DNA from: an uncultured Candidatus Saccharibacteria bacterium
GTDB lineage: Bacteria > Patescibacteriota > Doudnabacteria > UBA920
DNA length: 64,000 nt
Assembly: GCA_964594755.1 (NCBI GenBank)
Contig: CAZQMO010000002.1
Location: 9,889-73,888, forward strand
Reading direction: 5' to 3'
In this document: positions 44,936-45,183 of the stretch, piece by piece
Layout of the letters: each line of letters opens with the position of its first letter
Numbering within the stretch: the stretch's first letter is position 1
Notes under the pieces: generated by a model
Databases searched by the model: none
Told to the model about the DNA's origin: nothing
What the model saw: the letters and a program-made list of their open reading frames with translations, nothing else
Made by a program: the position numbers and the translations under genes

Positions 44936-45183
44936 TAAAAAATACACCGACTTTAGTTGGTGTATTTTTTATGTGCGTAGAGGAATCGAAAACAGCTTTC
45001 AAGCTGCCGGGGGCAGGTTGAAAGCGTCGGGGGTCGCCGCAGCGTTGTGCGAAACGAGCGCGAGCGAGTTGAGCATAGCGGGAGGTGACCGATTCCCATG
45101 CCAGCTTCGCTGGCATTTCGCAGCAACCCCGGACAACGAGCCGAGCAGTAGGTGACCGAGGCGGAATTCCCTCCTCAGGCTCA
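44936..45183 (+). repeat. E2: conserved structured element downstream of tRNA-Leu(TAA). It shares a core of about 110 nt with E1 and ends with a 15-nt copy of the tRNA 3' end (attccctcctcaggc).
   Basis: Identity to E1 over gaatcgaaaacag…gttgaaagcgtcgggggtcgccgcagcg…gttgagcatagcgggaggtgaccga. It also carries an atgccagc-ttcg-ctggcat UUCG hairpin. Confidence 0.7.

Follow-up and report, generated by a model that had tools for sequence, protein, structure and literature searches.

Transfer RNA (tRNA) genes are classic landing pads of mobile DNA. The elements known to land in them are, to our knowledge, kilobase-sized and carry their own integrase. Here we describe much shorter, gene-less units that lie behind tRNA genes of Candidatus Saccharibacteria, starting from one of them, E2, which directly follows tRNA-Leu(TAA) on contig CAZQMO010000002.1 of an uncultured member of this group (assembly GCA_964594755.1). 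The window, by which we mean the whole stretch of 64,000 nucleotides (nt) that was analysed, has about 41% guanine plus cytosine (GC) and 12 tRNA genes, called with ARAGORN and the Rfam tRNA model; its S1, GyrA and RNase HII proteins have their closest relatives in Candidatus Saccharibacteria. It holds two members of a family that we call E (E1 behind tRNA-Leu(GAG), and E2) and one member, behind tRNA-Ser(CGA), of a second family that we call S. Related loci fetched for comparison are given L numbers. Fragments of tRNA genes have been described as arising widely from the integration of mobile elements (PMC9897764).

Anatomy of E2

The segment of tRNA-Leu(TAA) from about nt 54 to 76 is copied by the 3' end of E2 and complemented by its 5' arm, and in helix P1 the arm sequence GGAAUCG pairs with CGAUUCC. 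Hairpin T1, which stands between the tRNA and the arm, was not called as a terminator by the scan and is orthologous in L037 and L038, with compensatory changes in the stem. A covariance model of the E family (R1, trained on seven copies) aligns with E2 over 44973-45111 (127 bits, E=2.9e-35), and blastn aligns 44944-45097, part of a GC-rich block, with 41489-41643 of E1 (79.5% identity over 156 nt, E=2.9e-31), which bears out the proposal of an earlier note on this DNA that E2 has the core of E1 with about 70 nt added; the common core measures about 155 nt. E1 and E2 share a 25-mer of the core (aaagcgtcgggggtcgccgcagcgt, 45021-45045) without any difference with five of the seven other-genome copies aligned. 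The E part of E2 ends in ..GGTGACCGA followed by TTCCC, a tRNA-Leu(TAA) copy that breaks off after five bases.

The additional sequence opens with an 8-base-pair (bp) hairpin, atgccagc/gctggcat (45098-45116). It had been described as a perfect UUCG hairpin; the stem stands, but its loop is a UUC triloop in the minimum free energy (MFE) fold, or a CUUCG loop on 7 bp. A C(UUCG)G tetraloop was rejected on account of the MFE triloop, and the loop of the orthologue in L050 reads AAA. Behind the hairpin lies a strand of S type, gcagCAACCCCGgacaacgag (45120-45140; also given as GCAGCAACCCCGGACAACGAG). Homology to the S family, located at 45117-45176 of E2, amounts to 79% identity over 62 nt with the tRNA-Ser(CGA) element at 30609-30669 (blastn, E=3.5e-7), and an S-family model (R2, trained on six copies) scores this half at 21.5 bits (E=0.002). 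The tRNA-Ser segment had been thought unrelated to E2 apart from a common junction motif; the two are in fact homologous, and the motif is the end of the homologous stretch. This motif, cgaggcggaa (CGAGGCGGAA, 45157-45166), occurs exactly twice in the window, as 45157-45166(+) and 30620-30629(-), each time directly before a copy of the adjacent tRNA, as reported earlier, and the S element of the window is the source of the motif in E2. The count of the 10-mer is by itself not significant, and with one mismatch allowed there are three matches against 1.7 expected. Other S copies read cgaggcgTaa, cgaggcgAGaa and cgaCgcgaCa at this place, which lies between two helices of the folded core. We take cgaggcggaa to be the conserved right-hand end of the S core, abutting the tRNA-derived repeat, and not a free-standing site.

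E2 terminates in ccgaggcggaATTCCCTCCTCAGGC, whose last part holds the 15-nt copy of the T-loop and acceptor strand of tRNA-Leu(TAA) that had been pointed out before and that is exact; a copy of this length would be met by chance within 300 nt with a probability of about 3e-7. The discriminator and CCA that follow are degenerate, with tcac in place of acca. By its composition E2 is a chimera: its arm and core are of E type, and what is joined on behind them is the 3' half of an S element (Table 1). The fusion may still fold as one unit, because a G-run of the E part (GUCGGGGGU) pairs with a strand of the S part (AACCCCGGAC) in the MFE fold and both segments are kept in L050. The chimeric make-up, the inverted copy of the tRNA end at the 5' side and the RNA-type covariation of the cores described below had all escaped the earlier note.

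Table 1. Features of the E2 locus and related elements of the window
Feature	Position	Strand	Description
tRNA-Leu(TAA)	44849..44935	+	Intact, encoded CCA; ARAGORN; Rfam tRNA 58.6 bits
E2, whole	44936-45184	+	Directly follows tRNA-Leu(TAA)
Hairpin T1 (F/F')	44936..44972	+	Directly after CCA; A-rich, stem, T-run; MFE
E2 5' arm, gtgcgtagaggaatcgaa	44973..44990	+	Imperfect reverse complement of the tRNA-Leu(TAA) 3' end, atggtgcctgaggagggaatcgaa
E-family core of E2	44991..45092	+	Three-way junction, helices P2-P5
First truncated tRNA-end copy, cgaTTCCC	45090..45097	+	Closes P1 of the E part; S-type half fused directly behind
S-family 3' half in E2	45098..45165	+	Hairpin, strand, degraded small hairpin, junction motif; blastn, motif scan, R2
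Distal tRNA-Leu(TAA) 3'-end copy	45166..45184	+	15 nt exact (attccctcctcaggc, 45166-45180), equal to tRNA 44917-44931
T2, strong hairpin	45185..45219		15-bp stem, A-run/T-run flanks; scan called + strand; apparently bidirectional
S1 gene	45219-46436	-	Open reading frame; convergent to E2
E1, complete E member behind tRNA-Leu(GAG)	41481..41656	+	Hairpin 41481-41516, 5' arm 41518-41535, core, tRNA copy; R1 155 bits
S, complete S member behind tRNA-Ser(CGA)	30602..30804	-	Hairpin, arm gtgagaggttcgaa, core 30602-30761, 16-nt exact tRNA copy; R2 150 bits
U-family structured 5' leader	44703..44848	+	Abuts the tRNA-Leu(TAA) 5' end; separate family, outside E2

A common plan at eight tRNAs

Searches with R1 and R2 in the window and the fetched loci located 17 E/S units, all in Candidatus Saccharibacteria, and their partners are tRNAs of eight species (Leu-GAG, Leu-TAA, Leu-CAG, Ser-TGA, Ser-CGA, Ala-TGC, Lys-TTT and Gly-GCC). 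The core of E type borders on copies of Leu(GAG), Leu(TAA), Leu(CAG), Ser(TGA), Ala(TGC) and Lys(TTT), and the S-type module abuts copies of tRNA-Ser(CGA), tRNA-Leu(TAA), tRNA-Leu(CAG) and tRNA-Gly(GCC). All 17 lie on the tRNA strand; they measure 140-220 nt and have no genes. A hairpin spacer of 36-45 nt leads from the CCA of the tRNA to the unit in 16 of the 17, the exception being L056, where a 1-kb gene-bearing insert lies between. Tandem arrays occur, with S followed by E in L013 and S followed by S in L005. E1, a complete E member whose tRNA copy is exact over 21 nt including CCA (41636-41656), sits within a Leu-Val-Phe-Gly tRNA operon in which no terminator was called.

The 3' end of every unit is the 3' end of its own neighbour tRNA, exact over 6-26 nt and beginning in the T-loop, so that the boundary between element and tRNA copy always falls inside the T-loop, at about nt 56-59. 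At the 5' end (consensus ..TAGnGGGAnTCGAA) the same segment recurs, imperfectly, as its reverse complement, and the arm follows the bases that are specific to each tRNA: GGAATCG/CGATTCC in E2, GGACTCG/CGAGTCC in L007 and GGGGATCG/CGATCCCC in L028. A different origin of the arm, from what remains of a tRNA 5' half (acceptor, U8A9G10 and T-stem), was prompted by GTGATGGTAG of L028 and rejected; the arms are read as inverted copies because their agreement with the 5' half is poorer than that with the reverse complement of T-loop nt 59-60. Together, arm and hairpin make a long imperfect palindrome centred just past the tRNA, and the 3' arm of the hairpin plus the 5' arm complement tRNA nt ~54-76 and the flank, imperfectly, in E1, E2, L028, L051, L052 and the S element of the window.

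The earlier note had argued that an element-side sequence shared between different tRNAs is hard to explain by simple tandem tRNA decay, and this was right, since the S-type module is homologous at four different tRNAs. Decayed tandem tRNAs were rejected as the origin of the units on the same ground, homologous cores at unrelated tRNAs. Its further suggestion, a common recombination or processing site, fares well where the constant T-loop boundary is concerned, which is what a common recombination boundary predicts, and with regard to the insertion polymorphism described below; it fails for the 10-mer, which is not a fixed core.

An exact 20-mer of the E core, searched against 185,579 species genomes with one genome per species, met 14 loci, of which six are true, all in metagenome-assembled genomes of Candidatus Saccharibacteria; the rest are chance matches in high-GC genomes. 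The same kind of scan in metagenomes, which is too strict to catch divergent E members, gave one true match (L028, behind tRNA-Lys(TTT)) among 19, the other 18 being chance matches in high-GC DNA.

Folded cores

The consensus fold of E comprises a closing helix P1, formed by arm and tRNA copy, a hairpin and a long arm of three helices. In the E alignment 95.1% of the cells at paired positions are paired, against 34-41% in controls with slid partners, and in the S alignment 94.6% against 32-50%. Double changes occur in 13 of the 42 pairs of the E core (0-3 in slid controls) and in 22 of the 49 pairs of the S core (0-5), and none of 500 shuffles reaches either value; the alignment sets behind these numbers are small (7 and 6 sequences) and their members mutually related. 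The fold is placed on the tRNA strand because of its many G-U pairs. A block of about 25 nt in E (AAAGCGTCGGGGGTCGCCGCAGCGT) is almost invariant, 23 nt being identical in all nine E copies first aligned, and the more divergent copies found later by the model differ within it.

In Rfam 15, only tRNAs reach the gathering threshold in the window, and the E2, S and E1/U regions give sub-threshold chance matches at permissive settings. The Rfam tRNA, transfer-messenger RNA (tmRNA) and mascRNA models do not match the elements, and neither ARAGORN nor Rfam calls a tRNA or pseudogene in 44936-45184, 41481-41656 or 30602-30804. The elements keep only tRNA nt ~56-76 and lack the D, anticodon and variable arms. 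A hammerhead or other small ribozyme, a tmRNA-like molecule and a remnant of a group I or II intron were each considered and rejected, with no model or motif match.

The folds bear on two rival explanations. The units might be neutral by-products of replication or repair, in which template switching at the palindromic T-loop sequence TTCGAA gives an inverted and a direct duplication and the core comes from another locus, or they might be decayed tandem tRNAs. The switch points, after ..TCGAA and before CGA.., lie inside TTCGAA, which reads the same on both strands, and template switching is known to produce inverted-plus-direct duplications. The same cores recur at eight tRNA species, however, with purifying selection on their helices, a constant geometry and long-term retention at orthologous sites, and decay of tandem tRNAs cannot give homologous cores at unrelated tRNAs; we regard this origin as very improbable. 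It is harder still to credit that the units encode guide RNAs, with the core as a protein-binding scaffold and the tRNA-derived 3' tail as a guide that aims a nuclease or transposase at tRNA ends, comparable to TnpB right-end RNAs or the homing CRISPR RNAs of type V-K CRISPR transposons. A conserved scaffold is indeed followed by a variable 3' segment equal to adjacent DNA, and the sequence before the tail is ..ACCGA in the element and ..TTCGA in the tRNA, like a self/non-self motif. Yet the intact adjoining tRNA would be targeted as well, the consensus fold has the tail base-paired with the 5' arm, and no TnpB, IscB, Cas or other RNA-guided nuclease gene lies at the inspected loci.

Presence, absence and exchange at orthologous sites

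The tRNA-Leu(TAA) site exists in several states. L037 and L038, whose S1 proteins are 94% and 91% identical to that of the window, have a complete S element there, and L052 has E alone. L050 and L051 (S1 87% identical) have the same E/S fusion as the window, with an identical junction (gaccgattcccatgccagc) and a more decayed S half. L039, L054 and L055 have neither E nor S, the outgroups L054 and L055 showing just a terminator. Because L050 and L051 share the fusion point and relatives show all variants, the E2 chimera is, by this comparison, old. The distribution of the variants does not follow S1 similarity, which suggests that alleles have been exchanged between lineages at this site. Hairpin T1 and the arm through ..AATCGAA are common to the window, L037 and L038, and the difference between them therefore amounts to an internal swap of the E core for the S 5' half.

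Two further sites differ between close relatives, and this is why we take the units to be insertions. The S1 proteins of L050 and L051 are identical and the flanks nearly so, and the tRNA-Leu(GAG)-tRNA-Phe spacers measure 21 nt and 299 nt, respectively; the longer one holds a hairpin, E, the tRNA copy and a piece resembling repetitive extragenic palindromic (REP) sequences. The 21-nt spacer of L050 differs at several positions from the corresponding sequence of the filled site, which suggests that the difference, whether insertion or loss, came about by allele replacement through recombination. Behind tRNA-Ser(CGA), S is present in the window and L056 and absent in L057 and L058. The empty site reads CCA-GAAGTT-ACACATGCAACT, and filled sites read CCA-GAAGTT, then the insert, which ends in the tRNA copy and GTAT/ATTAGG, then (G)TTACATGTGCAACT; the native flank TTACA.ATGCAACT thus resumes past the distal copy (window and L056 against L057).

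A comparable arrangement exists behind tRNA-Ala(GGC), where the window has a third type of element at ~32060-32233 (-), with its own terminator, a GC-rich core of about 125 nt and a 14-nt tRNA copy (agtatggtccacca); it has no tRNA-complementary arm, and L056 and L057 lack it. The sequence after the 14-nt copy corresponds to the native terminator of L056 and L057. Both the tRNA-Ser(CGA) and the tRNA-Ala(GGC) loci fit, in their sequence, either attachment (att)-type integration through about 25 nt of identity or duplication of a long stretch of target.

Where the tRNA has changed, its copy and arm have tended to change with it. In L052, tRNA-Leu(GAG) has T3-A70 in place of the C3-G70 of the window, its E copy likewise has A70, and its arm has UGUU in place of UGCC; in L037, the C67 variant of tRNA-Leu(TAA) also occurs in the S copy.

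Transcription and the search for a partner enzyme

A promoter-like site precedes tRNA-Cys, upstream of tRNA-Leu(TAA), and between these tRNAs and E2 the scan called no terminator. T2, at 45186-45219, is the first site that resembles one, and a second, weaker site lies just beyond it within the S1 gene. E2 is for this reason likely to be co-transcribed with the upstream tRNAs, and T2 would end both the tRNA-Cys/tRNA-Leu(TAA)/E2 unit and the convergent S1 gene.

Neighbouring genes were examined with Pfam scans at the window, L007, L009 and L013 and with precomputed Pfam tables for 12 further loci. The viral searches comprised three pattern scans of IMG/VR and a blastn search against 50,697 phage records. 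What they returned is taken up below, together with the explanations on which it bears.

Insertion elements, scars or RNAs

The reading that we favour, and to which we would give an even chance, is that E and S form a superfamily specific to Saccharibacteria of non-autonomous, structured insertion elements at the 3' flank of tRNA genes, with E2 as a chimeric member. A unit would run from an intact tRNA through the 36-45-nt hairpin, the inverted arm and an E- or S-type core to a direct copy of the tRNA from T-loop to CCA. Units would enter tRNA loci, and occasionally move between them, by recombination within the T-loop-to-CCA segment, with a trans-acting enzyme as catalyst. On this view the distal tRNA copy would represent target sequence that was displaced or duplicated, and arm plus hairpin would be a folded mimic of that target. 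The units, being on the tRNA strand and within tRNA transcription units or at their end, are probably co-transcribed. In the transcript the arm would pair with the distal copy as P1, so that the element closes on itself rather than invading the tRNA, and this closure could yield an end resembling a tRNA acceptor and T-arm that tRNA-processing enzymes may trim. Mobility and structure would be reconciled in that insertion leaves a tRNA-complementary arm and P1 pairing keeps this arm off the tRNA in the co-transcript; the sequestered arm would explain why selection acts on both arm and copy. The candidates for the route of insertion are a trans-acting integrase (att-type), a folded target-mimic hairpin used by a host enzyme, and a functional tRNA-mimicking RNA spread by duplication.

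Several observations weigh against this picture. No tyrosine or serine recombinase, the cognate enzyme that the earlier note had proposed to look for, was found beside any inspected copy or near any inspected independent locus, nor was a transposase, an HUH protein or a reverse transcriptase, the Pfam-annotated neighbours being housekeeping genes only. The IMG/VR pattern scans met nothing but chance matches, which lie in coding sequence of unrelated and mostly GC-rich contigs, and the phage records gave no E/S match; no free, circular or phage-borne form was found in these collections, a plasmid collection not having been covered. With no recombinase nearby and no free form, mobility is deduced solely from distribution. 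At tRNA-Leu(GAG) of L051, the native spacer follows the proximal repeat and not the distal copy, which misfits simple att-type integration. The distal copy is decayed in L028, E2 and the S element of the window, yet the arm still complements the real tRNA end, which weakens P1 as a selected pairing. Orthologous copies last across species with compensatory changes and an almost invariant block of about 25 nt, and this resembles a selected RNA function more than a purely selfish element.

A rival view is that the units are att-site scars, that is, the attL, remnant and attR of integrase islands or prophages that have lost their interior, or miniatures like cis-mobilizable elements (CIMEs) that an integrase of this sort mobilises, with the tRNA copy as attR and cgaggcggaa as an arm beside the core. 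T-loop-to-3'-end direct repeats behind an intact tRNA, as Reiter in 1989 and Williams in 2002 are said to have described, are the classical signature of tRNA-targeting integrases, and in this respect the direct repeat behind the tRNA is already textbook. The repeats of the 17 copies (6-26 nt) fit such integrases, native flank follows the distal copy at tRNA-Ser(CGA) and tRNA-Ala(GGC), tandem accretion is observed, and L056 has its 1-kb gene-carrying insert at the same CCA. Against this view, no integrase was seen at or near any inspected locus, and no copy on viral contigs or in phage records; independent deletions would not reproduce units of 140-220 nt with the same end points at eight tRNAs; att arms have no need of RNA-type covariation in the interior; a target-complementary 5' arm is not a feature of att sites; and the flanks in L051 misfit. 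We hold this explanation to be unlikely.

The L056 insert itself (10758-11752, +; ~1 kb) carries a Peptidase_S66 (LD-carboxypeptidase) gene and fills exactly the interval from the CCA of tRNA-Ser(CGA) to the S hairpin; its right end repeats CCGCCA, and GACCCACAT motifs stand near both ends.

If the units serve the host, they would be genes of small RNAs (sRNAs) that borrow the tRNA acceptor/T-arm for maturation and stabilisation by RNase P, 3' exonucleases and the CCA-adding enzyme, after the manner of tmRNA, mascRNA or plant mitochondrial t-elements, or that act on the tRNA as external guide sequence or decoy, with copies arising by duplication and without mobility. Such a function would account for the strong covariation and the ~25-nt block that is almost invariant across loci and species, for the fold on the tRNA strand, for the position inside tRNA operons, for the three-way co-variation of tRNA acceptor stem, copy and arm, and for the retention of the elements in genomes of about 1 Mb. 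It sits badly with presence and absence between genomes of identical S1 protein and with the lack of the elements in sister lineages, with decayed copies that have no CCA (E2, the window S and L050), with an acceptor-like helix that is not conserved, with the lack of a canonical T-loop, and with several interchangeable families at one site. A role of this kind, as the whole explanation, seems to us distinctly unlikely.

The lack of an element-encoded recombinase would be explained if a single strand integrates in folded form, as in the CTX phage, which, according to work ascribed to Val et al. in 2005, reportedly has a folded attP and exploits the host Xer recombinases, as other elements also do. 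Copy plus flank would pair with the hairpin 3' arm plus the 5' arm and so mimic the end of a tRNA gene, a host recombinase would exchange the strands, and the core would serve in producing or priming the strand. This model predicts the order tRNA, F, loop, F', arm, core, copy and native flank, the constant 36-45-nt hairpin, and arms that stay complementary to the real tRNA end and flank even where the distal copy has decayed. It also predicts similarity of the flanks after the two repeats, which is 72 against 40.7 +/- 6.3 in permutations, a signal that stems partly from a tandem duplicate and terminators. The model is drawn wholly from geometry, however, with no single-stranded or circular form, Rep/HUH gene or nick site identified; the arms are imperfect, with deletions in them, the switch of specificity between tRNAs is left unexplained, and the abundant G-U pairs suit RNA better than DNA. 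As it stands we consider it improbable.

A bolder reading goes further. E and S may be gene-less mobile elements of a new kind, which enter the DNA behind tRNA genes as a folded single strand (DNA, or RNA by way of complementary DNA). Their termini, an inverted and a direct copy of about the last 20 nt of the tRNA with its flank, would form a hairpin that mimics the double-stranded target; a host enzyme would exchange the strands, the core would make or prime the strand, and after integration the distal copy would neutralise the arm in the co-transcript. We put this forward as a speculation that is unlikely.

Relation to known systems

Among the closest known arrangements are the att repeats of integrase-mediated islands and prophages, T-loop sublocation class. 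The E/S units resemble them in the sequence of intact tRNA, insert and direct T-loop-to-3'-end copy, in tandem pile-up and in the native flank at two loci; they differ in their size of 140-220 nt, in having no integrase, no cargo, no phage counterpart (as judged from IMG/VR and phage records) and no known plasmid counterpart, in the covarying core, in the inverted 5' copy and in the occurrence of one core at eight tRNAs. With elements of the CTX/Xer kind they have in common an inverted, target-like pair that folds into a mimic of the site, the lack of a recombinase of their own and a pair that stays at one junction, but their target is a tRNA end rather than dif, they have about 200 nt and no genes, and the likeness is purely geometric.

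Among RNAs, tRNA-like ends on which tRNA enzymes act are found in tmRNA, mascRNA, plant mitochondrial t-elements and viral RNAs. The units are like these in their 3' T-stem/acceptor strand with CCA, the 5' strand that pairs with it and their place in tRNA transcription units; unlike them, they have no canonical T-loop and a weak or absent acceptor helix, and the adjacent gene is the source of their tRNA-like part and co-evolves with it. RNAs of the 3'ETS-leuZ type offer a second comparison. 3'ETS-leuZ of Escherichia coli is reportedly an sRNA from a tRNA-operon spacer, and such RNAs are said to be locus-specific, unstructured sponges. E and S also occupy an internal or 3' external transcribed spacer (ETS) of tRNA operons, from which release by tRNA processing is predicted, but they constitute a multi-locus family with tRNA-derived termini.

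Bacterial miniature repeats, such as miniature inverted-repeat transposable elements (MITEs), REP sequences and bacterial interspersed mosaic elements (BIMEs), Correia, RUP and RPE elements, are likewise short, multi-copy, structured, non-coding and patchily distributed, with inverted termini. The termini of E and S, by contrast, are the local tRNA end, the units occur only behind tRNAs and in one orientation, and the conservation of their cores is much higher. MITEs have constant terminal inverted repeats (TIRs) and a target-site duplication (TSD) of fixed length; E/S termini differ among copies, equal the local tRNA end in each, and form repeats of 6-26 nt. The combination of gene-less units of 140-220 nt, an offset of 36-45 nt, an inverted plus a direct target copy, covarying cores and eight tRNAs was not found in the literature searched or in Rfam.

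Other elements beside tRNA genes

The U family is a separate type of structured segment that precedes tRNAs. Besides the leader of tRNA-Leu(TAA), U leaders occur at 41745-41889 and 50269-50336 (+), with orthologues in L037, L038, L050 and L052. They end in ..GACGC/GACGT at the 5' end of tRNA-Leu(TAA), tRNA-Phe and, in part, tRNA-Ile(TAT). Compensatory changes are seen in 15 of 30 predicted pairs, and the family has no Rfam match. L039, L054 and L055 have no U leader, and in them only 3-16 nt separate tRNA-Cys from tRNA-Leu(TAA). GC-rich and apparently structured segments with no tRNA copy follow tRNA-Leu(TAG) (~11740-11842, -) and tRNA-Ile(TAT) (50571-50690, +); the former holds cccggacaaacg, which resembles the S-family strand ccccggacaacg. 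The tRNA-Ile gene itself (50494-50570, +) encodes a UAU anticodon and is conserved in all related loci. Bacteria mostly read AUA with a modified CAU anticodon, and an encoded UAU is unusual.

Insertions of other kinds are met at the fetched loci. A mirror image of E consists of a 19-nt 5' fragment of tRNA-Val(TAC), gggcgattagctcagytgg, an insert of about 110 nt and then the intact tRNA-Val (L005 ~860-1010, L052 19314-19425 and L055 ~14610-14725, all -). A REP-like hairpin, CT(G/T)CTYCG...CGMAGTGCARGCA, stands directly past the CCA of tRNAs or E copies in L039 (after tRNA-Leu(TAA), an E copy and tRNA-Gly), L051 (13920-13955) and L058 (10721-10760). The anticodon loop of tRNA-Phe(GAA) is split by an insert of about 240 nt resembling a group I intron in L039 (~15240-15470, -) and L054 (~17950-18200, -), which is why ARAGORN misses this tRNA there, and LAGLIDADG-like open reading frames lie beside the tRNA clusters of both loci. 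L054 also has an odd tRNA-like gene (11386-11459, -), to which ARAGORN assigns a 4-nt anticodon, 'cgtc', and whose interior gggtccctggttgggcaggatagactcgtc complements gacgagtctatcctaaacaggaccc about 40 nt downstream. The 3' ends of tRNAs appear, from these sequences, to be general insertion hot spots in the carrier genomes. The independent assemblies L036 and L038 (at their ends) and L059-L061 break in or beside tRNA/E/S units, which is consistent with repeats fragmenting short-read assemblies.

Implications

E/S units are of practical concern for genomics of these bacteria. They probably break assemblies at tRNA loci, where the contigs L036 and L059-L061 end, and the fragments of tRNA ends that they leave could confuse the annotation of tRNA fragments or att sites in Patescibacteria. 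The covariance models R1 and R2 enable a genome-wide census of both families. For the biology of the hosts, the point is that a lineage of episymbionts with streamlined genomes of about 1 Mb carries gene-less units at the flanks of its tRNA genes. If these units are mobile, they would represent an unrecognised way of targeting tRNA ends, be it with an enzyme of the host, with one that acts in trans, or by folding into a mimic of the target site. Should they instead be functional RNAs, they would make up a class of spacer RNAs not described before, which mimic tRNAs and whose ends evolve together with the tRNA beside them.

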